DNA of 64,000 nt from a virus (taxonomy: Duplodnaviria > Caudoviricetes), in IMG/VR virus record IMGVR_UViG_3300042691_041259, positions 96,001 to 160,000 of that record. One strand, 5' to 3'. The position numbers were made by a program, and so were the translations under genes. The notes under the pieces are model-generated. The model saw nothing but the letters and a program-made list of their open reading frames with translations, was not told the origin of the DNA and ran no database searches. Position 1 is the first letter of the stretch; each line of letters starts with the position of its first letter. Positions 1 through 54,070 of this stretch are shown here, piece after piece.

Positions 1-293
1 TGTACCGCGTGTGTCCAGCCACAAAGGATTCCGCCTTCTTTCATCTGTTCCAGGTCTGCTGCAACAGGCTTTGGCAAAATAATGATGTCACAGTTATACA
101 GCTGTTCTCTTGGAGCTACTCTACAGCCAAAATTCAAAAAGTACTCATCGGAGTACCCATAGTCAGCGCCATAGCCTTCTTCAAACACAAGCTGCTCTCG
201 GACGCTTTTCTCAATTTTACGAATATGCTCGGGATAAATTGGAATGCGTTTTTCGTTTTCCTTATACGATGTTTTGAATACTCCTGTTGTCAT
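1..293 (-). CDS. N5-(carboxyethyl)ornithine synthase-like protein (AlaDh/PNT-family N-terminal domain), 5' part only; runs off the window start
   Basis: Not in the ORF track. My translation of the minus strand from the ATG at 293 gives MTTGVFKTSYKENEKRIPIYPEHIRKIEKSVREQLVFEEGYGADYGYSDEYFLNFGCRVAPREQLYNCDIIILPKPVAADLEQMKEGGILCGWTHAVQ with no stop. KENExR, FEEGYG, CDII..PK and GWxHxVQ match the Ceo synthase family as I recall it. The ATG overlaps the TGA of the ATP-grasp gene (ATGA, 290-293). Confidence 0.8.
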   Translation of the reverse strand, partial: MTTGVFKTSYKENEKRIPIYPEHIRKIEKSVREQLVFEEGYGADYGYSDEYFLNFGCRVAPREQLYNCDIIILPKPVAADLEQMKEGGILCGWTHAV

Positions 294-1378
294 TTCTTAT
301 CTAGGTTGAAAAAGTACCGATAACCGTCTTTTGCTTTGGGATCTGTTATGAGTTCATAATCCATTGCCCATTGCGACGATTGAATTTCCTTTTTGTATTT
401 TGGCCAGTAGTTCTGGTGTCCAGGAACTACGTATTTTTTGTAGATGTCTTCCAAGAATTCGTCGGGAAGCTGCTCACCGTAAAAGTCTTCATAAATTGCT
501 TTATAGACTTCGCACATTTTCACGCTTCCCAACCCGGTTGCGGATGAAGTTTCCATCACCCACAGCTTTCCTTTCTTATCTACTACAATATCCAGCGACC
601 AAAGGTTTAAGTCCAAGTCTTTCTTAATATCTGAACAGATTTGCAGAACGCTTTTGATAAATTCAGGAGAAACCTTATTTCTGTCTTGGTACACATATGT
701 AAAAGCAATTTTTTCATTTGCTTTCTTGGTCTTAATAGAGCGGTCCTCATCAATGGTAGGAACTCGTTCATTAATGATGATGATCTGGTCCTGGCAAAAT
801 ACTACCCGGTATTCTCTTTCAAAATCAATAAACTGGCAAAAAAGATCAAAATCTTCTTTGCTTTTCTTTAGTTCTTCGGGAGTGTCAAACTTTTGAACTC
901 CTAATCCACTGTGGCCATTTTTAATTTTGGCAATCACAGGAAAACCAACAGCTCCGTCTAGCGCTTCTTTTTTAGAAAACACTGTTTTTGGAAGCCACTT
1001 GTATTTTCCAAAAGTTTTGCCAAACAAGGTTTTATCGCCCGACGTTGGCAAAAGTTCTCTTTTATTGTATAAGAGATCGCTGTTTACCTTTTTATTTTTG
1101 ATAAACATTTCAGACTCTTTGTCCTGTCCGCCTCCGTAATAGAGAAGCGGAATTCCATCTACAATCTGAACCTTTTCATTGTCAAAATCATCTTTGGTAA
1201 AGTAATTATGAAACAGCGCATTTTTAGCGGCCATGTTGTATTTTTTTTCGCGGCCGTTTACATCTCCCGAAGTTGTGCGTATGTCATTGGACTGCATGAC
1301 CCAGCCAACTTTCTTGGCGTACTTGTCATACATATTGGCTTCAAAGATAAATTGTTCGTAGAGTTTAACGTGTTTCAT
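290..1378 (-). CDS. ATP-grasp ligase (RimK/glutathione-synthetase-like fold) with a capsid-targeting-like N-terminus
   Basis: FPVIAKIKNGHSGLGVQK, QFIDFEREYRV and SLDIVVDKKGKLWVMETSSATG are ATP-grasp motifs; N-terminus MKHVKLYEQFIFEA. Confidence 0.8.
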   Translation of the reverse strand: MKHVKLYEQFIFEANMYDKYAKKVGWVMQSNDIRTTSGDVNGREKKYNMAAKNALFHNYFTKDDFDNEKVQIVDGIPLLYYGGGQDKESEMFIKNKKVNSDLLYNKRELLPTSGDKTLFGKTFGKYKWLPKTVFSKKEALDGAVGFPVIAKIKNGHSGLGVQKFDTPEELKKSKEDFDLFCQFIDFEREYRVVFCQDQIIIINERVPTIDEDRSIKTKKANEKIAFTYVYQDRNKVSPEFIKSVLQICSDIKKDLDLNLWSLDIVVDKKGKLWVMETSSATGLGSVKMCEVYKAIYEDFYGEQLPDEFLEDIYKKYVVPGHQNYWPKYKKEIQSSQWAMDYELITDPKAKDGYRYFFNLDKK

Positions 1379-1386
1379 AAAAATTG

Positions 1387-1959
1387 TTATCCAAAGTATT
1401 CATTTTCAAAGTATAGAATCTCGAACTTGCTATCCGTGTTGATCAAGGTCAACGCGTTCAGAAGATCTGAGTATTCGCCCACTGCTTCATTCTGAATGTC
1501 AACATACCCTTGAATGAAGTTAAATGTAGCACAGTGAATGTCACAAAGAATTCTTTGACCTTTTTCACAGTACTTGTCATACAAATCGTATTCCATTTGG
1601 TAAGCGCGATTAATGATATCTACCAGGCTTACAAAATCAACTCGTGTAGGAGCTTGCGGAATGGCTGGCATTTCGTTCCACTGTACAAGGTAGTCCTGTA
1701 GACCTTTTGCGTGTTCTAGTTCGCTTGCCGCTTCAGCTTCAAAGAAAGCGGCTGCTTTTTTGTAGTTTACATTATTACACCAGTTTGCAGCATTTCTGTA
1801 GAAGTAATGCGCTGTATACTCGTCACCAATACGGTCATTGAGCATATTCACAACTTCTGCAGGAAGCTTATTAGGTGTGATTGGCTTAACCGCAGTCAGA
1901 TCAATTGCTTCATTGATCGTAATGTTGTTATCGCCTTTGAATGTTTGAAAAGTTTTCAT
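1387..1959 (-). CDS. Ferritin (non-haem, FtnA-like)
   Basis: Ferroxidase-centre pattern intact: E..Y (DEYTAHYFY), ExxH (SELEHA), E (QMEYD), QxxE (IQNEAVGE); four-helix-bundle length. Confidence 0.85.
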   Translation of the reverse strand: MKTFQTFKGDNNITINEAIDLTAVKPITPNKLPAEVVNMLNDRIGDEYTAHYFYRNAANWCNNVNYKKAAAFFEAEAASELEHAKGLQDYLVQWNEMPAIPQAPTRVDFVSLVDIINRAYQMEYDLYDKYCEKGQRILCDIHCATFNFIQGYVDIQNEAVGEYSDLLNALTLINTDSKFEILYFENEYFG

Positions 1960-2544
1960 CTATTTTATGTATTTTCTTAGCTCATCAAAGTACTTATGAA
2001 GCTCTTTAGGCATCTGTTCGTCGAAAGCTTTTTTGTCGTCGTCCTTTAATGCCTGACGAACTTTAGTTCCGCTTGGCCCACCGTCCTCTCTTGCGTCTAC
2101 CATCTTTACATTAAAGGATGGATCAACTGGAGTATCAGTTTTTGGACCAGTGATATATTCAACTTGTCTTTTGTAATCCGAGAATCGGTCACTTCCGCAA
2201 CCAACACCCATCGGCTCATAACCTTTGCTGCGTAGGAATTGCACCATCAGCGGTATTACCGTCTTTTGACCTTGTGGATAAATGAAATAGTCAGCAATGT
2301 AATTGTTAGCTTTTACCACATCGGCTCCCATCTTTTCCAGCAATGAATCCGGAAATGGAGACTCTTCTTTTTTGGAAAGAATTTGAATAGGTATCACAGG
2401 TAAGCCAAATTCCTCAGAAGTTCTTTTCAAAGCTGCCAAATGTCCATTGTGAAATGGCTGGAACCTTCCAGGAAAGAACACCACTTTTTGGCCTTCTTTC
2501 TCAAAAATAAAGCTTTCAAATGTCTTAACGTATTCTTTTCTCAT
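1960..2544 (-). CDS. HxGH nucleotidyltransferase (cytidylyltransferase-like, T4-like phage family)
   Basis: GRFQPFHNGH, GSDR and SGTKVR motifs; N-terminus MRKEYVKTFESFIFE. Confidence 0.85.
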   Translation of the reverse strand: MRKEYVKTFESFIFEKEGQKVVFFPGRFQPFHNGHLAALKRTSEEFGLPVIPIQILSKKEESPFPDSLLEKMGADVVKANNYIADYFIYPQGQKTVIPLMVQFLRSKGYEPMGVGCGSDRFSDYKRQVEYITGPKTDTPVDPSFNVKMVDAREDGGPSGTKVRQALKDDDKKAFDEQMPKELHKYFDELRKYIK

Positions 2545-3146
2545 TATGCAATATCTTTTGATTCAATCAATGTATACGTAAAAGAATTTCCATGCAGCAA
2601 AGCAGCCTTGCTGCAAATTGCCATGAATTGTTTAAAGTCTTTAATTCTTTTAAACACCTGACAGCCTTCGCTCCAGTTTTCTACGTATTGGCTTTCTGTT
2701 TTGGGATTGCTTCTGTGTATGTTAATTCCAAAAAGCCCTTCATCTACAATAACCTCATTAAAGGTCATATCTTTGTTTTTATCTCGCCAAACTTTTACAA
2801 GTCTTTGCTGGCAAAGAGCCTCATATTTTCCTTGATGCAGACGAATAGTATGCGATCCTCTGTATTGGTTAGGTATGAGTCTAGCAACACCCTTTGGATT
2901 GCTGTAATTCTTTACCGCCTTTGTTCCTGGATCAGTAGTGCATGCCCAAGAAAAAAACTTCCATTCACCGTTTTCCTTGTATGAAATAGTCAACAAATCG
3001 TCAAAAAGATTTGTGACCGACTTTCCAGTTGAAGAGTTTCTAACCCCAACAATGTTGACATCAAACCCTTTATTTTCTTCATCGTCAAACCAAACATATC
3101 CTTTGTTTTGTACGGCAGCTTTTATTTTTTCCAGTGTAAGACTCAT
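2544..3146 (-). CDS. L,D-transpeptidase (YkuD)-like protein, possible peptidoglycan-acting enzyme or endolysin
   Basis: C-terminal H-x14-SxGC catalytic-like motif GINIHRSNPKTESQYVENWSEGCQV. Confidence 0.6.
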   Translation of the reverse strand: MSLTLEKIKAAVQNKGYVWFDDEENKGFDVNIVGVRNSSTGKSVTNLFDDLLTISYKENGEWKFFSWACTTDPGTKAVKNYSNPKGVARLIPNQYRGSHTIRLHQGKYEALCQQRLVKVWRDKNKDMTFNEVIVDEGLFGINIHRSNPKTESQYVENWSEGCQVFKRIKDFKQFMAICSKAALLHGNSFTYTLIESKDIA

Positions 3147-3155
3147 AACAAACTA

Positions 3156-4478
3156 TTATTTTTTATAGGCAAGTATGCTTCGGATTTGATGAAGCGGAGC
3201 AAAAATTCCAGTATACTTATAGAGCTTACCTTTGAATACAAAAGTAATTCCTTCGGTAGGTACTATACTTTCCAGTCCGCCAGCAGCTGCTACTCGAGTA
3301 AGCTCGTGTTCCAGCTTTGCTACATCTTTTTCATCACCATTAGTGCGAATAGAAGAAATCACAGAATCAATTTCTTTTCTCATAGAAGCTGCAGCAGCTG
3401 TAGGATTAGCTGACAAAAACGCACTGATGTTTTTCATCATTTCAGTTCCAACTTCCAGGAAGAGACTTTCCAACGGACCGTATACCTTTCTTTTGAGTTC
3501 TTTTCCACGGCTCTTTTCCATGTCAACAAACCAGTTAGCTCCTTCGCCCAAGTCTTTTTTCAGCTGTGCCGCAGTGTATGACTTGTCAATGTCTGCTATT
3601 CTTCGAGCCAAACCGTCCATTGAATTTTCTGGAATTTCCACTTTTGCTTTAGCAGCTTCTTCCTTCAGAATTTTCTTAGCCATGCCTAAAGCATAATCAC
3701 CAACCGTACTGTTAGAAGTAGAACCGCTTTCTGCCATAATGGAATCAAGCTTGCTCTTGTAATAGGAAGCCCGTTCCTTTGTTTTTGGAAATGGAATAGA
3801 AGCTATATCTTGCGGACCTCGAACAAAGAAAGTTTCTTGAGCAGTTGCATTAGCATCCGCCACAAGTTTTCCAAGTTCTCTACCGGCCTGCTTATCTTCA
3901 CCAATTGCGTTACCATCTGCATCGTGTTCAACTACGCCATGAAATACAAGCATATTCTGTCCATACGGAACAGTATTTTGTGTAATAGGCGTAATGACTT
4001 CAACCGAAGCAAAATTCTTTCCATCGTTAAAGTACTTCTTTTTGTCAGCTTCTGACAGTGAATTGATGGCACCAGTAAGATCTTTCATAGCCGCATTATA
4101 TGCGGTTTCAATATCACCTCGGCCCGCAAACATACTTGCGATACCCGCAGAATCCAAAGCAGCTTCTCCACCATTTTTAAGGTGAGACTTGTTACGAGCC
4201 GCAATAAGCTTCCCGTTTTTCCAAGAGATCATGATGTTTTGACCGTCGGTCTTTTCTTGAACAAAGTTCTCAGGCCCGAACGCGCCGCTAACGGTGGCCT
4301 CAATCATTTCGCGAAGGTCTGCCATCGTCAGTCCTACGTCTTCAAACGGATGACTGATATGGCCGTACGCTCCACCTTCATTTACCGCATTCCACTCTGC
4401 CCAAGAATTAGTACGGCCTTCGTAAAGCCTTACTTGTTCAAGAAATGCATTGTAGCTGTATAGTCTGTTTGTACTCAT
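3156..4478 (-). CDS. ATP-dependent ligase/nucleotidyltransferase-superfamily protein (RNA-ligase-like, T4-like phage DUF6267-type)
   Basis: GHISHPFED; motif I EKTDGQN; motif III-like SVEVI; motif IV/V-like EGITF..YKYTG. Confidence 0.65.
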   Translation of the reverse strand: MSTNRLYSYNAFLEQVRLYEGRTNSWAEWNAVNEGGAYGHISHPFEDVGLTMADLREMIEATVSGAFGPENFVQEKTDGQNIMISWKNGKLIAARNKSHLKNGGEAALDSAGIASMFAGRGDIETAYNAAMKDLTGAINSLSEADKKKYFNDGKNFASVEVITPITQNTVPYGQNMLVFHGVVEHDADGNAIGEDKQAGRELGKLVADANATAQETFFVRGPQDIASIPFPKTKERASYYKSKLDSIMAESGSTSNSTVGDYALGMAKKILKEEAAKAKVEIPENSMDGLARRIADIDKSYTAAQLKKDLGEGANWFVDMEKSRGKELKRKVYGPLESLFLEVGTEMMKNISAFLSANPTAAAASMRKEIDSVISSIRTNGDEKDVAKLEHELTRVAAAGGLESIVPTEGITFVFKGKLYKYTGIFAPLHQIRSILAYKK

Positions 4479-4684
4479 TAGAATGTGCTGTCCATTATTA
4501 CTTTTGCGATATCATCAATTAAACCGCTTTTAGCAACATCCGCGCCTGGCTTAAGATAGTTTTCTTTCATCATATGTTCAATAATGACTGTTGCAAGAAC
4601 TTTAGCGCCTGATGGCTTATTCTTCCCTGCTACTTGTACTGCTGCTTCGGCAACAAATGTCTCAAATGATTTAGTGTAATTCAT
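4478..4684 (-). CDS. Small hypothetical protein, putative internal head protein
   Basis: 68 aa; N-terminus MNYTKSFETFVAEA; TAATG coupling to the next gene. Confidence 0.6.
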   Translation of the reverse strand: MNYTKSFETFVAEAAVQVAGKNKPSGAKVLATVIIEHMMKENYLKPGADVAKSGLIDDIAKVIMDSTF

Positions 4685-4957
4685 TTACGGTGCTGTTTTT
4701 ACATGATCTATGAATGCTTCAAAGGCCTTTGTAAGATCCTCATACGCTTCATCAAGATTCGTAATATCTTTCTGATTAGGCACACCCGACACTGGATTGG
4801 GTTCTAGCGTTGCACGCATTGCAAGCTCTGCGGCTGCGGCTTTCGCCTTCTTTTGCAGATCAAGATATTTGTTAACATACTGCTTGAGGCGTGCCTCAGA
4901 AGGACTCGCCTCGTTGATTCCGTTTTCAAATTCTGAAAAGTTCATCTTATTTGGCAT
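4685..4957 (-). CDS. Small helical hypothetical protein, putative internal head protein
   Basis: 90 aa; N-terminus MPNKMNFSEFENGINEA; abuts neighbouring genes. Confidence 0.6.
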   Translation of the reverse strand: MPNKMNFSEFENGINEASPSEARLKQYVNKYLDLQKKAKAAAAELAMRATLEPNPVSGVPNQKDITNLDEAYEDLTKAFEAFIDHVKTAP

Positions 4958-5375
4958 CTTTTTCAGTATCGATTTCGCCTTCCTTGTTTACTTCTTCTCC
5001 CTGCTCTTCTTCTTTCTTAGGCTTAGCATCTTTTACTTCTTCACCGCCTTCTTGCGCGTCTTCAGCAGCAGGGAGTTTTTCAGTTTCTTTAGCATCTTTA
5101 GCAGCAGGAATTTCAGCTTCTTTAACACCAGCTTCATCTTTTTCTTTTTCAACTTTGTCTTTTGCCGCAGGCTTAACACCTTTGCCAGCATCCCAGTCAG
5201 CTGCAATCTCATTGAAGAACTCTTTCTTCTTCTCGTCGTCCAAGTCAGCAGGAGATTCTACTCCGTACTTTGCAAGTTTTGCTTGGAAATAGTCTTGGTA
5301 AGACTTTTGCAGCTCTGATTTTTTAGCATCTTCGGCTTCGCGGATTGAACCAATCCATTCACTAAATTTTTTCAT
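4947..5375 (-). CDS. Highly charged protein, possible prohead core or internal protein
   Basis: 142 aa, E/K/A-rich; MKKFSEWIGSIREA; YQDYFQAKLAKYGVESPADLDDEKKKEFF resembles small T4-like phage proteins as I recall them. Confidence 0.6.
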   Translation of the reverse strand: MKKFSEWIGSIREAEDAKKSELQKSYQDYFQAKLAKYGVESPADLDDEKKKEFFNEIAADWDAGKGVKPAAKDKVEKEKDEAGVKEAEIPAAKDAKETEKLPAAEDAQEGGEEVKDAKPKKEEEQGEEVNKEGEIDTEKDAK

Positions 5376-5384
5376 TGTTCTATT

Positions 5385-6209
5385 TTATTTTATGTTTTCT
5401 TTTTTCTTTTGGAGCTTTTTAATCTCATCATTTATGCTCTGAATTGCAGACATAGCTTTTTTAGCCCCCGGATCGCTTGAATCACCTCCGTATTCATCCT
5501 CAATTTTTTTATTGAGAGACTTTTGTTTTTGCATCAGCGAATTTATCTTATCATCAATTTCTTGAACTTTATCGCTAACGCTACTTTCTTCATCTTTTTT
5601 CTTTACAAAGAAAATAGTATTTCCTTTAGGAGTATTTATAGGACCTGAACTATCATACTTTTTAGGGTCGGGAACTTCTGGACCGCCCTCCCCGGGCTTG
5701 TATTGATACATGCCCGCATCCTTTGCTTGCTTGACAGCTTTATCATAAATTTCCTTTGTTTTCTCGCTACTCATTATCCAGTATTCTTTTTTACCATCTG
5801 GATTAACGACTGACGCAGTTTTTGGGAACCCTTCAGAATCAGCTTCTTCGTATCGATCCTGGTCGGTTTTTACAAAGCCTTTAGATTCCAAATCTTCTTT
5901 TTTCTTTGCATAGTCCTCTTTTGCCTGTTCGGCCTTATCTTTTAGCAGATCTACCTGTTTTTGAATAATTTCCTTTTTCTTTGTGGAACCTTCCCCTTCA
6001 ACATCTTTCTTGGCACCTATTAAAGCTTTGATTTTGTCTCGTATAGCAGAAAGCAGTCCTTCATTCATGCATTCATCAATATTAACAAATTCAATAATCT
6101 CTTCTTCTGTTAAAGAATTAAATACATCAGAATTTTCTACTTCCAGCGTAAAACTTTTAATAGATTCTTTTAGAGCAAATTGCTCAAATTTCATAATACG
6201 AGTTTTCAT
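5385..6209 (-). CDS. Lys/Glu-rich coiled-coil hypothetical protein, putative internal head protein
   Basis: 274 aa; MKTRIMKFEQFALKES; further L/I/M-x-E sites (LTEE, IIE, MNEG). Confidence 0.6.
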   Translation of the reverse strand: MKTRIMKFEQFALKESIKSFTLEVENSDVFNSLTEEEIIEFVNIDECMNEGLLSAIRDKIKALIGAKKDVEGEGSTKKKEIIQKQVDLLKDKAEQAKEDYAKKKEDLESKGFVKTDQDRYEEADSEGFPKTASVVNPDGKKEYWIMSSEKTKEIYDKAVKQAKDAGMYQYKPGEGGPEVPDPKKYDSSGPINTPKGNTIFFVKKKDEESSVSDKVQEIDDKINSLMQKQKSLNKKIEDEYGGDSSDPGAKKAMSAIQSINDEIKKLQKKKENIK

Positions 6210-6223
6210 TTTTCTTATTTTTT

Positions 6224-6610
6224 TTATGACATTCCGTAGATGTTCTGGAATTTTCCGTAGTATTTATCCAACTCCTCACTAAGTATTTTGGTAACAGCTT
6301 CCTGACCCATTCCTACCGCATCGGCAAGCTTCTTGATGATATCTTCATCAATACGAAGTTTTTTGTCCATTGCATGAACAAAGGTAGTAACACACTGGTT
6401 AATGAGAGTTTCTAACTGCTTATCGCCTTCGGCTTTAGGCCAAAATATGTCAAGCAGATGAGATCTGAGTCCATCTAAAGTGGGGTCTGCGTGGTTAACT
6501 CCCGATGCTACGGGATTGTTAGTCATGGGAAGATCGTGAGACTTGGAACTCTTTGCGTTTCCTGCTCCTCTTGCATAACCCTCGTTAAGAAATTCTTTGA
6601 AAGACTTCAT
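6224..6610 (-). CDS. Hypothetical protein, putative internal head protein
   Basis: 128 aa; MKSFKEFLNEG closely matches the T4 internal-protein leaders (IPI MKTFKEF.., IPIII MKTYQEFIAE). Confidence 0.65.
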   Translation of the reverse strand: MKSFKEFLNEGYARGAGNAKSSKSHDLPMTNNPVASGVNHADPTLDGLRSHLLDIFWPKAEGDKQLETLINQCVTTFVHAMDKKLRIDEDIIKKLADAVGMGQEAVTKILSEELDKYYGKFQNIYGMS

Positions 6611-8949: not shown

Positions 8950-9407
8950 CCTCTTCGGTATTCTTCTAAAGCTATTCGATGTTTTACTCCATAACAGATA
9001 GTGTCTATGCTTCTGAGTGTTTCCCTCATATAATCCAAATGATTTTGTAGCAGCTCTCGTCTTTCTACAATATCTGCAAGGTCAACATCAATAAACAACA
9101 TCTTTGGATCCTTATCTAGCCTTAGATCGTAATTTTGAGTATAGTGCAAGTATCTTTCCCGCTTTCTCTCTCGGTAGATTCGATTCAGTTTTGAAGAATG
9201 AGCAACAAGCTCGTGTACATAGTCTCCAGCAATCTGTCTTTGACTATATAGGTCTGTAAGAAGCTCTGCTACATCATAAATGTTTTTCAGTCTCTCAGTA
9301 AGAGAACTTACTTTGGTAGTCCACTCTTCTCGTTCTGTCGCAAACCTTTGGTAAAGGCTGTCGTTCTTAGAAGAGGCTTCCTGCACCGTTGTCTTTTCTT
9401 CTGACAT
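8946..9407 (-). CDS. uvsY: UvsY-like recombination mediator
   Basis: 153-aa helical protein with YTQNYDLRL..K..FID.D and L..IDTICYGVKHRI; sits next to uvsW. Confidence 0.65.
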   Translation of the reverse strand: MSEEKTTVQEASSKNDSLYQRFATEREEWTTKVSSLTERLKNIYDVAELLTDLYSQRQIAGDYVHELVAHSSKLNRIYRERKRERYLHYTQNYDLRLDKDPKMLFIDVDLADIVERRELLQNHLDYMRETLRSIDTICYGVKHRIALEEYRRG

Positions 9408-9538
9408 ACACGTTATTTTTAGTAGACTTCAATCGTGGTTGTTCCGCCACAAAATCGGTCAGAGTATTTATTTCAGGCAAATTTGTTTGAAAAAATGCCA
9501 GGCCTTTCAGCTTTATCGGAGCTTCCAACCAAATCTGC

Positions 9539-10621
9539 TCAGATCCAATATGCGTCATACTTATTGGTTGAGAAGAAGTCTCCGAATCTTGGGAGGCTGA
9601 TTTGTTTTCGTTTTGCATAAACTATCAGGTCGGTCAAGTCTATTTTTTTGTTGCCGTATGGTATTTTAGCGGTATCCAAGTACTTTTTCCACAAGAACAC
9701 TGGATAGCCTACTAGAAGCTTTTCCATTGAAGCCTCTCTGCCTGCGGCATCGTAGTCGTACATATACCGAACGCTTCCCATTTCAAGAGGAAAGTCAATC
9801 TTGGAAGAACATGTTGCGACAGCATTTTTAAAGAGGAAGCTATCCAGCGGGCCTTCAAATACCGTAATAGGTTGTTTAAAGTCAAGCTGAAGTATTCCAA
9901 AAGTAGTAGATATTTTGTCAATTTCCAATACATCCTCGGTAGGTTGAACACCTAAGTCTTCATAAATACGCGAAAGCTTCCAGGTCATATACTTGGGAGT
10001 TGACTTGAAATTACGTACCTGAAAACCTAATGCCCGGTCTGTCCCGGGAACCATGTGGTAAATGTAGAGCTTTTCCTTTTCGGAATCCCAAGAAAACTTG
10101 GTAAACTCCGGCTGACATCTTTTCTTTAGATACTGAAAAATACGAGCATTGTCTACTGGAACTGCTCCATAAAATTCATCCAGTGCCGAACGGCTGAGAG
10201 AAACTTTTTCAATTAGACCTTTATCAAGAAAAACAAAAGGATCAATTGATTTTGTACTAGGAGCAAATTCTTGTTGCTGGCTCTGGATGTAAATGATTTC
10301 ATTAGTGTCCAGCTGTTTAGAAAAGTCTTTGAATAATCCACGGACTGTGGTATGCTTTCCACAGTTATAGCAGTGATAGCCAAAGTTTTCCGTGTAGATA
10401 TTACCACGCTTTTTGTGGAGTTCGCTATACGAATCACCACAATAAGGGCATGCAAAATTAAGTCTTCCGACTTTCTCAGAAATTCTCCTTTTCTCGTGCT
10501 CCGGGAAGCGGCTATCTAAAATTTCTTGAAGAAGCTTTTGAATCTTTGCATTGAGCTCAGTCGGATCAACTTCCTTGGAATTAAAAGAAAAGGAGAATGA
10601 GTCAAACTCATTCTCCTTCAT
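9539..10621 (-). CDS. DNA primase (T4 gp61-like)
   Basis: Zinc finger CPYCGDS..KKRG..YHCYNC; TOPRIM VFEGPLD and YDYD. Start moved to MKENEF (10621) to avoid overlapping ssb. Confidence 0.85.
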   Translation of the reverse strand: MKENEFDSFSFSFNSKEVDPTELNAKIQKLLQEILDSRFPEHEKRRISEKVGRLNFACPYCGDSYSELHKKRGNIYTENFGYHCYNCGKHTTVRGLFKDFSKQLDTNEIIYIQSQQQEFAPSTKSIDPFVFLDKGLIEKVSLSRSALDEFYGAVPVDNARIFQYLKKRCQPEFTKFSWDSEKEKLYIYHMVPGTDRALGFQVRNFKSTPKYMTWKLSRIYEDLGVQPTEDVLEIDKISTTFGILQLDFKQPITVFEGPLDSFLFKNAVATCSSKIDFPLEMGSVRYMYDYDAAGREASMEKLLVGYPVFLWKKYLDTAKIPYGNKKIDLTDLIVYAKRKQISLPRFGDFFSTNKYDAYWI

Positions 10622-53722: not shown

Positions 53723-54070
53723 TTATTCAAAATCGGGCAAAAAGCCAAGACTATTCATACAGTCTTGATTAAAGTATGCCTGTTGTGATCTTGGATATTT
53801 GTTACTAAAAATAATTTTATCATCTTTAGCGACATCCAAAAAGTATACCCCTCCACCAATACCGGCTGTGATTGCCCATTCGGCGCCAGATCCACGTTCT
53901 TTTGCTACGTAAACATCCACTTGATCAAAGCGATTGTCATCGTCAAGCGTTTCTTCGCTTCTTTCCGCATCTCTGTCAAAGCTTATTCCACCAAGTCTTA
54001 ATTGTTTTTCAATATCAAAAGGTAAATGCGCTTCGCCAACAAACGCCTCAAACGTTTTTAAGTGCTTCAT
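53723..54070 (-). CDS. Small protein with a capsid-targeting-like leader
   Basis: MKHLKTFEAFVGEA; ATGA coupling to the amidoligase stop. Confidence 0.6.
   Translation of the reverse strand: MKHLKTFEAFVGEAHLPFDIEKQLRLGGISFDRDAERSEETLDDDNRFDQVDVYVAKERGSGAEWAITAGIGGGVYFLDVAKDDKIIFSNKYPRSQQAYFNQDCMNSLGFLPDFE

Follow-up and report, generated by a model that had tools for sequence, protein, structure and literature searches.

Lactic acid bacteria, Agrobacterium-induced crown galls, metallophores and a few O-antigens are known settings of opine-type (carboxyalkyl-amine) chemistry, which to our knowledge has not been reported in any virus. The described enzyme closest to the one considered here is N5-(L-1-carboxyethyl)-L-ornithine synthase (CEOS, EC 1.5.1.24; Lactococcus lactis P15244 and plasmid copies), a protein of about 310 aa with the two-domain fold of the AlaDh/PNT superfamily, whose genes stand alone among stress genes on plasmids of lactic acid bacteria. 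A dehydrogenase working with a ligase is familiar from VanH-VanA, in which the dehydrogenase turns a 2-oxo acid into an unusual carboxylic-acid block and an ATP-grasp ligase incorporates this block. The phage reductase has the CEOS fold and falls in a sister clade, but it is 349 aa long, is 25-27% identical to Lactococcus-type CEOS, and its gene, unlike the real CEOS genes, adjoins that of a ligase.

The window, that is, the whole stretch of 64,000 nucleotides that was analysed, corresponds to G000:C1:96001-160000 of a 202.5-kb virus record, and the lineage that carries the pair is an uncultivated jumbo phage lineage. The relevant features, in window positions, are the following.

1..293, minus strand: first 97 codons of the reductase gene, an ORF related to CEOS and putatively of NADP(H) type, which continues past the window edge.
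290..293, minus strand: ATGA, in which the start codon of the reductase gene overlaps the stop codon of the ATP-grasp gene, a translational coupling that recurs in related loci.
290..1378, minus strand: gene of an ATP-grasp amide ligase of 362 aa, predicted from weak Pfam matches, phrog_2599, an AF2 model and structural matches.
1340..1378, minus strand: codons of the ligase N-terminal leader MKHVKLYEQFIFE, which resembles T4 capsid-targeting sequences and ends in I-x-E.

The sequence-only reading had proposed an ORF that starts at 293 on the minus strand, overlaps the ATP-grasp stop and encodes several CEOS-like motifs, and these points were borne out. The reductase ATG occupies 293-291 and the ATP-grasp TGA 292-290, so that the four bases ATGA are common to both ORFs, and the translation opens with MTTGVFKTSYKENEKRIPIYPEH and contains FEEGYG, CDIIILPKP and GWTHAV. 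Recovery of the upstream sequence, which it had suggested, completed the ORF from the virus record as a gene that encodes 349 aa (G000:C1:95244-96293, equal to L001:744-1793, minus strand). The reductase is not a chance ORF, because 2121 homologues were detected, the closest at 80% identity. Scans for promoters, terminators and T4 late promoters gave matches at chance level only. The pair most likely makes an amide-linked N-(carboxyalkyl)amino acid, and it probably attaches this unusual carboxyalkyl amino acid to a target. With moderate confidence, we favor a two-gene module in which an imine-reducing opine-type synthase and an ATP-grasp amide ligase work together.

The reductase matched the Pfam profiles AlaDh_PNT_N (E 1.3e-15) and AlaDh_PNT_C (E 7.9e-9), and the latter match means that the NAD(P)-binding C-terminal domain, on which the proposal of a CEOS-like enzyme depended, is present in the full ORF. 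Its AF2 model (pLDDT 93.7) compares with AlaDH at a TM-score of 0.86 and with CEOS at 0.72-0.81 (24-26% identity; Foldseek E about 1e-23), and AlaDH-like C-terminal helices are retained. R16, K75, H95, D256 and D260 are invariant across the reductase family, and the catalytic-type residues R16, K75 and H95 align with those of CEOS and AlaDH. The closest PDB and NCBIfam sequence matches are alanine dehydrogenases, which together with the TM-score of 0.86 would fit an ordinary alanine dehydrogenase lying beside an unrelated ligase, the adjacency being inherited synteny only. Nevertheless, this explanation is very improbable: the reductase scored 60.1 bits against TIGR00518, the alanine dehydrogenase equivalog, whose cut-off is 391.85; the 12-residue AlaDH loop after the AGR motif is absent from both the phage reductase and CEOS; the end of beta2, acidic (E/D) in AlaDH, reads TQR in the phage family and YRK in CEOS; and, as described below, the pairing is found again with a second CEOS clade as well as in bacteria. 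The GWTH motif is common to the phage reductase and CEOS. The residues at the end of beta2, with no acidic side chain among them, suggest that the dinucleotide site is of NADPH type.

The IQ-TREE phylogeny rooted on PntA agrees with this picture, as the AlaDHs form a basal grade and the phage reductase lies outside them (100/99). A group composed of the L. lactis and Vagococcus CEOS and the 318-aa protein of L117 is sister, at 100/99, to a family of phage and cellular proteins of 350-390 aa, in which the phage clade is nested among bacterial 'CEOS-like' proteins. Long branches (1.7 + 2.5 substitutions per site) separate the 350-390-aa clade from real CEOS. Judged by tree position and identity, the phage reductase sits outside the characterised CEOS clade and is not a CEOS orthologue. 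Thus, the CEOS-like identity first proposed stands in part: the protein is nearer to CEOS than to plain alanine dehydrogenases in the tree, the GWTH motif, the shared deletion and beta2, but orthology did not hold. Because the clade is separate and longer and the identity is only 25-27%, pyruvate plus ornithine or lysine as substrates is an analogy rather than a finding, and the long branches, together with the lack of a characterised member in the 350-390-aa clade, mean that the substrates may differ from those of CEOS. Members of this family, which counts more than 2000 detected homologues in many phyla, are called 'alanine dehydrogenase' or 'CEOS' in databases without evidence.

A different assignment within the same reaction type would be a saccharopine-type enzyme (lysine + 2-oxoglutarate) or one acting on polyamines instead of a pyruvate-using CEOS. 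Five cellular members of the family, at 45-49% identity, lie 0-370 nt from Sacchrp_dh-type genes instead of ATP-grasps, a hint that some family members carry out 2-oxoglutarate/lysine or polyamine chemistry. For the phage enzyme we consider this improbable, since these members belong to another subclade, and the nearest relatives of the phage subclade are found in polysaccharide loci. In a profile comparison of the kind suggested by the sequence-only reading, the family profile matched yeast saccharopine dehydrogenase LYS1 with E 1e-3 over ~100 residues (profile positions 233-336), compared with E 4e-25 for AlaDH, and LYS1 was not among the top 30 Swiss-Prot fold matches of the reductase.

The partner protein belongs to the ATP-grasp superfamily, with the three-domain fold, the Lys, the E-x-R and the Asp/Glu metal ligands. 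The core fold spans residues 22-301 of the AF2 model (pLDDT 88.9) and is followed by a 60-residue C-terminal extension; K151, E189, R191, D263 and E276 are invariant in the ligase family, and the ExN metal motif is ETS (Asn to Ser) in the nearest relatives (at least 58% identity). Sequence profiles gave weak Pfam matches to R2K_2, RimK and Dala_Dala_lig_C and a match to phrog_2599 (RimK-like, E 1e-9). The score for R2K_2 (PF18299) was 21.6 bits against a gathering threshold of 26.2, homologues at 35-39% identity carry PF18299/PF14243, and the score for the RimK family TIGR00768 was 16.3 bits against a curated cut-off of 143.4. The top structural matches were ArgX, LysX and RimK (VIA-align, Z 15.6-15.8 over residues 22-301) in a flat ranking from 15.8 down to 13.8, and those in Foldseek were Ddl/PsnB. 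The resemblance to RimK is structural only. A search of 50,697 deposited phage records gave no close homologue of either the ligase or the reductase, in line with the earlier remark that no phage pathway of this kind has been described.

Conservation of the leader MKHVKLYEQFIFE extends over the whole ligase family; the leader ends in IFE and lies outside the fold, where it is disordered in the model with low pLDDT. The same motif heads 17 of the 218 ORFs in this genome, compared with 0.17 expected. A short N-terminal tag with an (L/I)xE-type end on unrelated proteins is, at the level of sequence, the trait of the T4 capsid-targeting sequences, which comprise about 10 N-terminal residues and are processed at an (L/I)xE-type site (PMC9026906). 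This raises the possibility that the ligase travels in the virion, enters the cell together with the DNA and there modifies a host protein, as T4 Alt does, while the reductase provides an unusual amino acid for a peptide-like tag or alters the tag once it is attached. A protein target would also fit the top structural matches, as LysX/ArgX and RimK act on protein carboxylates, the prediction that phage R2K ligases modify host proteins (PMC4431377, PMC7824862), and a phage record that lacks glycan genes. However, the structural ranking is flat, the R2K_2 score is under the Pfam cut-off, and the reductase has no such leader and would not be co-packaged with the ligase. Furthermore, no prohead protease (PF03420) was detected in the record, although the control genomes likewise gave no match, so that this search had no working control. 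We regard the packaged ligase as a tentative and rather unlikely explanation.

Besides overlapping here, the synthase and ligase genes are paired repeatedly. The co-occurrence expected in related phages was found when the gene neighbourhoods were surveyed as the sequence-only reading had advised: of 18 distinct related viral contigs, 17 carry the two genes side by side, with varying flanking genes. In 11 loci the distance between them is -4 to +5 nt, the 4-nt overlap occurring also in L003-L005 and gaps of 1-5 nt in L007-L014; in L020, L023 and L113 the overlap is 17-32 nt when counted from the first in-frame ATG. The exception is L030, where a ligase of 61% identity stands without the reductase and is followed by a 312-bp ORF-free stretch. 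The pair is also found on a 263-kb phage-like contig (ligase at 50% identity), and at least 16 further pairs of ligase and reductase homologues have their members on contigs of equal size. Since all the phage contigs are of one lineage, the conserved adjacency is partly inherited synteny. More distant ligase homologues pair either with the long-form reductase or with a short true CEOS-type protein; in one case, nothing but an IS605 insertion lies between the gene of a 43%-identical ligase and that of a short bona fide CEOS-type protein. Thus, two different CEOS-clade enzymes became attached to the same ligase family. The complex prediction for ligase and reductase scored 0.00, which gives no verdict either way on binding. 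A cytidylyltransferase-like neighbor gene comes and goes beside the pair, and the same is true of ferritin, which adjoins it in the nearest relatives alone; the others have ferritin at another place or lack it. Because the position of ferritin varies, the metal chelator that had been suggested from its vicinity was rejected.

The best comparative lead comes from bacterial capsule and O-antigen loci that combine reductase homologues with ATP-grasps. The closest cellular homologues of the reductase (51-56% identity) lie in Wzx/Wzy/glycosyltransferase loci beside TupA-like or RimK-like ATP-grasps, and all five cellular contexts examined in full were polysaccharide loci with ATP-grasps. One capsule locus, on an E. 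coli plasmid, has genes for a UDP-sugar dehydrogenase and an epimerase, and its CEOS-like gene is overlapped by that of a 322-aa protein in which ATP-grasp motifs are present. BLAST clustering of the bacterial neighbor proteins found few shared families because these loci are so variable, and domain-level scans were needed. The phage ligase had no similarity to these neighbor proteins by BLASTP or phmmer, and hhalign against single bacterial partners aligned the ATP-grasp core alone, with low probability; the analogy is thus functional and not orthologous.

These loci, and the placement of distant ligase homologues among glycosyltransferases, sulfotransferases and a collagen-like gene, are what would be expected if the pair decorated a surface or virion glycan, a uronic or other sugar acid being amidated with an N-(carboxyalkyl)amino acid so that a host antigen or receptor is altered. 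The chemistry has a precedent in the O-antigens of Providencia and Proteus, from which N-epsilon-(1-carboxyethyl)-N-alpha-(D-galacturonoyl)-L-lysine, a carboxyethyl-lysine amide of galacturonic acid, and amides of alanopine are known (PMC10609480). In our search, no relevant paper on CEOS with ATP-grasps or with polysaccharide genes was found, and the openly accessible literature held no gene assignment for O-antigen carboxyethyl-lysine. However, the 202-kb record, which is about 66% complete, yielded no glycosyltransferase (GT2), UDP-sugar dehydrogenase or epimerase, and the genes around the pair are replication and accessory genes, with no glycan genes nearby. Decoration of a glycan by the phage is for these reasons unlikely.

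Taking the two-gene module as the preferred reading, we propose that both genes form one functional unit expressed from the same transcript. The 349-aa protein, a member of the AlaDh/PNT superfamily in the sister clade of CEOS, would act as an opine-type synthase that uses NADP(H) to reduce an imine: a 2-oxo acid, with pyruvate as the model, would be reductively condensed with a primary amine of, for example, lysine or ornithine to give an N-(1-carboxyalkyl)amino acid. The ligase, for its part, would activate a carboxylate as acyl phosphate and then form the amide bond that joins the N-(carboxyalkyl)amino acid to an acceptor. We infer that the products of the two genes are coupled, and the order could be either: the opine may be the substrate of the ligase, or the reductase may cap the free amine after ligation. 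Given the absence of glycan-building genes and the capsid-targeting-like leader of the ligase, we lean to an acceptor that is a macromolecule or metabolite of the host or the phage, and away from a phage-built glycan; nothing was found that points to the peptidoglycan-stem cap that had also been suggested. A more specific scenario, with a capsid-delivered ligase, a reductase derived from bacterial polysaccharide loci, and an amide-linked N-(carboxyalkyl)lysine or -ornithine on a host or phage macromolecule, is speculative and would probably not hold in all its parts.

The phage pair is conserved and translationally coupled, occurs with partners from two CEOS clades, and mirrors a bacterial capsule/O-antigen module. 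If the opine-type modification is real, it would add a new type of modification directed by phages, serving takeover or counter-defence, and would show what a large family of uncharacterised bacterial enzymes does; packaging and injection of the ligase, if they occur, would place the action of the system at a very early stage of infection. Solving the phage pair would probably explain the large uncharacterised reductase family as well, and it may identify the genes for the carboxyethyl-lysine decorations of O-antigens.

Among the known systems, the bacterial CEOS-like genes (e.g., on the E. coli plasmid NZ_AP027746.1) belong to the family of the phage reductase, with 42-59% identity, and their loci with ATP-grasps follow the same two-enzyme logic, often with overlapping genes. 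They differ in that their ATP-grasp partners are of other subfamilies without detectable sequence similarity to the phage ligase, their reductases have two elements that the phage form has lost, an insert of 15-17 residues and a C-terminal tail, and their loci contain glycan genes, whereas the phage locus does not. RimK/LysX/ArgX and the R2K clade give the top structural matches of the ligase with profile scores under the curated cut-offs, but the phage enzyme has an extra 60-residue C-terminal region, the N-terminal leader and, in the close clade, the ETS motif. The T4 internal proteins and Alt share with the ligase a short N-terminal tag that ends in an (L/I)xE-type site, although the putative phage tag is a few residues longer than the T4 tag. 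VanH-VanA resembles the phage pair in operon logic only: VanH is of another dehydrogenase superfamily and makes D-lactate rather than an opine, VanA is a Ddl-type ligase, and homology between the two systems does not extend beyond the ATP-grasp fold.

An ATP-grasp ligase gene is directly followed by a gene for a putative reductase in the virus record (202,505 bp; about 66% complete by CheckV), within a tightly packed minus-strand block of replication and accessory genes. This pair is a genuine feature, a new variant assembled from known enzyme kinds. Record coordinates G000:C1:96001-160000 correspond to the window.

Window 290-1378, minus strand: ligase ORF, 362 aa, upstream of the reductase ORF.
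Start at window 293, minus strand: reductase ORF, 349 aa, in full at L001:744-1793 (record region with the pair); the window holds 97 codons.

The sequence-only reading had placed an ORF start at 293, overlapping the ligase stop; this was confirmed, as the reductase ATG (293-291) and the ligase TGA (292-290) share ATGA, and the ORF reaches 349 aa in the whole record. The ORF is a real gene because it has 2121 homologues, the closest at 80% identity. The full ORF matches AlaDh_PNT_N (E 1.3e-15) and AlaDh_PNT_C (E 7.9e-9), and therefore the C-terminal NAD(P) domain looked for in the completed ORF is present.

Sequence searches alone were ambiguous for the reductase: the top PDB matches are alanine dehydrogenases (AlaDHs; E 1.9e-16), the top NCBIfam match is TIGR00518 (only 60 bits, where the cut-off is 392), and JGI labels its homologues either "alanine dehydrogenase" or "N5-(carboxyethyl)ornithine synthase" (CEOS). 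By tblastn of plasmids, from which the reference sequences were taken, PGAP-named CEOS of Lactococcus and Vagococcus are 25-28% identical to it (E about 1e-15), AlaDHs of Bacillus and Bosea 22-24% (E 1e-7 to 1e-9), and "CEOS" genes of an E. coli and a Streptomyces plasmid 42% and 39%. A tree of 32 sequences (IQ-TREE, LG+C20), with E. coli PntA domain I as its root, has the AlaDHs as a basal grade; a clade supported at 100/99 divides into Lactococcus and Vagococcus CEOS with a 318-aa phage protein on one side and every phage and cellular protein of 350-390 aa on the other. The phage reductases are monophyletic (100/99) and nested among cellular proteins, next to an Ignavibacteriota protein (89/91). 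The alignment agrees in that the reductase and CEOS share a GWTH motif and lack a loop of 12 residues that follows the AG(Y/R) motif, unlike AlaDH; R16, K75, H95, D256 and D260 are retained. The end of beta2 is non-acidic in the reductase and CEOS (TQR or YRK) and E or D in AlaDH, which suggests that the cofactor would be NADP(H), as in CEOS. The AF2 model (pLDDT 93.7) has a TM score of 0.86 to AlaDH and 0.72-0.81 to CEOS, and among the structural matches sequence identity is higher for CEOS. Yeast saccharopine dehydrogenase was reached by the family profile only at E 1e-3. That the protein is a plain alanine dehydrogenase can be all but ruled out. The reductase is a member of a distinct uncharacterised clade, the closest relative of CEOS; thus, the CEOS-like identity first proposed stands as kinship (sister at 100/99) but not as demonstrated CEOS function, and we regard the protein as a predicted opine-type synthase.

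Profile matches of the ligase are weak (R2K_2, E 2e-4; RimK, Ddl and YheCD weaker), and it matches the RimK-like phrog_2599 at E 1e-9. Its AF2 model (pLDDT 88.9) has a full ATP-grasp fold, for which Foldseek returned Ddl, PsnB/MdnC, RimK and LysX; VIA-align placed ArgX/LysX and RimK on top (Z 15.6-15.8 over residues 22-301) in a flat ranking. K151, E189, R191, D263 and E276 do not vary within the family, and the ExN motif is ETS in the close clade and ETN or EIN in farther members. Just 127 homologues were found, nearly all on phage-like contigs, the most distant bearing R2K_2/R2K_3 domains.

Searches of IMG/VR with either protein returned identical contigs, and the co-occurrence expected of a coupled pair was borne out: the ligase gene is followed by the reductase gene in 17 of 18 distinct related viral contigs, one (L030) having lost the reductase. 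Intergenic distances run from -4 to +5 nt in 11 loci; if an earlier in-frame ATG is taken as the start, they are -17 to -32 nt in L020, L023 and L113. At least 16 further ligase and reductase clusters agree in the length of their contigs. The ligase of L113 (JGI 3300029288), a 263-kb phage-like contig, is 50% identical, and its pair overlaps by 17 nt. NCBI ascribes this homologue (P0180) to a "Candidatus Pacearchaeota archaeon" MAG, probably a binning error, because the contig bears gp32 and helicase genes and resembles a jumbo phage. The most telling evidence for coupling is the 89.6-kb phage-like contig L117, in which a 43%-identical ligase is accompanied by the 318-aa protein that groups with bona fide CEOS; thus, one ligase family is joined to two different CEOS-clade enzymes. 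An IS605-type element (resolvase and OrfB/TnpB; L117:7134-8940) lies between these two genes. No such partner accompanies a ligase subclade of 342 aa (38% identity), which has sulfotransferases, glycosyltransferases and a collagen-like gene as its neighbours. Among 50,697 deposited phage genomes there was no close homologue of either gene, the sole weak match being in an uncultured 462-kb phage, and therefore the pair is undescribed in phages.

The neighbouring genes (ferritin, cytidylyltransferase-like, phrog_3000 and 440-aa) stay near the pair in the nearest relatives only.

Window 1387-1959, minus strand: ferritin-like gene with matches to Pfam Ferritin (E 4e-16) and, below cut-off, to non-heme ferritin NF007638 (E 9e-16); where it lies with respect to the pair differs among relatives.
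Window 1960-2544, minus strand: HIGH-motif nucleotidyltransferase, 194 aa (GRFQPFHNGH), with the N-terminal leader described below; archaeal-type NMN adenylyltransferase models match over the motif only.
Window 3156-4478, minus strand: 440-aa protein with a KTDG-like motif (VQEKTDGQN), conserved in nearest relatives; no Pfam or PHROG match.

Relatives of the nucleotidyltransferase occur near the pair elsewhere as a 198-aa protein and, in L113, a 652-aa fusion. The KTDG-like motif suggests that the 440-aa protein may be a ligase-type covalent nucleotidyltransferase.

Together, the reductase and ligase would form a two-enzyme module yielding an amide-linked N-(carboxyalkyl)amino acid, which is the best-supported reading and probably correct; the acceptor could be a protein, a glycan or a small molecule. 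Bacterial counterparts bear on a glycan acceptor. The reductase family is present in at least 534 loci from many phyla, and its closest cellular members (51-56% identity) are located in polysaccharide loci: one of Ignavibacteriota with flippases, glycosyltransferases, pyruvyl transferase, EpsG and a TupA-like ATP-grasp, and three more with Wzy, Wzx, GT2, sugar oxidoreductases, ATPgrasp_ST, PGA_cap and Asn-synthase-like genes, where one or two TupA-like ATP-grasps adjoin the gene. Iterated HMM searches found RimK-like ATP-grasps at most 51 nt from the CEOS-like gene in L033, L036, L037 and L046, and TupA-like ones in seven others (L034, L035, L038, L040, L041, L044 and one locus absent from the distance listing). 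On an E. coli IncFIB/IncY plasmid, wza-wzb-wzc and a WecA-like gene are present at the CEOS-like locus. The gene of a hypothetical protein of 322 aa, alignable to the ATP-grasp core, shares 8 nt with the CEOS-like gene, and next come a flippase, glycosyltransferases, EpsG, an epimerase and a nucleotide-sugar dehydrogenase. Providencia and Proteus O-antigens contain N-epsilon-(1-carboxyethyl)-lysine amide-linked to galacturonic acid, and alanopine amides (PMC10609480, PMC11989651); we found no open papers assigning genes to them. No GT2, UDP-sugar dehydrogenase or epimerase occurs in the 202 kb of the phage record (about 66% complete), and we consider glycan modification by the phage pair quite unlikely as a version of the two-enzyme model.

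In seven polysaccharide loci of bacteria, the CEOS-like gene is flanked by members of an unannotated family (sizes of about 390 and 507 aa; no match in Pfam). This family, which the phage lacks, may be a third part of the bacterial module.

L034:6408-7928 and 9162-10331; also L035, L038, L039, L044 and L045: unannotated flanking family.

In a farther subclade (45-49% identity), the gene directly adjoins a saccharopine-dehydrogenase-type gene (Sacchrp_dh_NADP/_C; L048, L052, L057, L096, L110), which suggests a bacterial saccharopine-like or polyamine pathway; because of these neighbours, the keto acid and amine may vary within the family.

A protein acceptor would fit the model if the ligase were injected to modify proteins, and modification of host proteins has been predicted for phage R2K-type ligases (PMC4431377, PMC7824862). 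The ligase begins with the leader MKHVKLYEQFIFE, which is kept in all its homologues and poorly ordered in the AF2 model, and the reductase is without it. Written as the pattern M-K-H-[VI]-K-x-[FY]-E-x-F-[LI]-x-E, the leader heads 17 of 218 ORFs when matched strictly, where 0.17 would be expected, and about 25 when matched more loosely. Its carriers are mutually unrelated (the ATP-grasp, the cytidylyltransferase-like protein and numerous small proteins).

Window 290-6610: leader-bearing ORFs.
Window 53723-54070: also leader-bearing.
G000:C1:76636-95238 (whole-record coordinates, outside the window): leader-bearing ORFs.

This injected-modifier version of the two-enzyme model is tentative and, on balance, unlikely. 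The leader resembles the capsid-targeting sequences of T4, which comprise about 10 N-terminal residues and are removed at an (L/I)xE-type site (PMC9026906).
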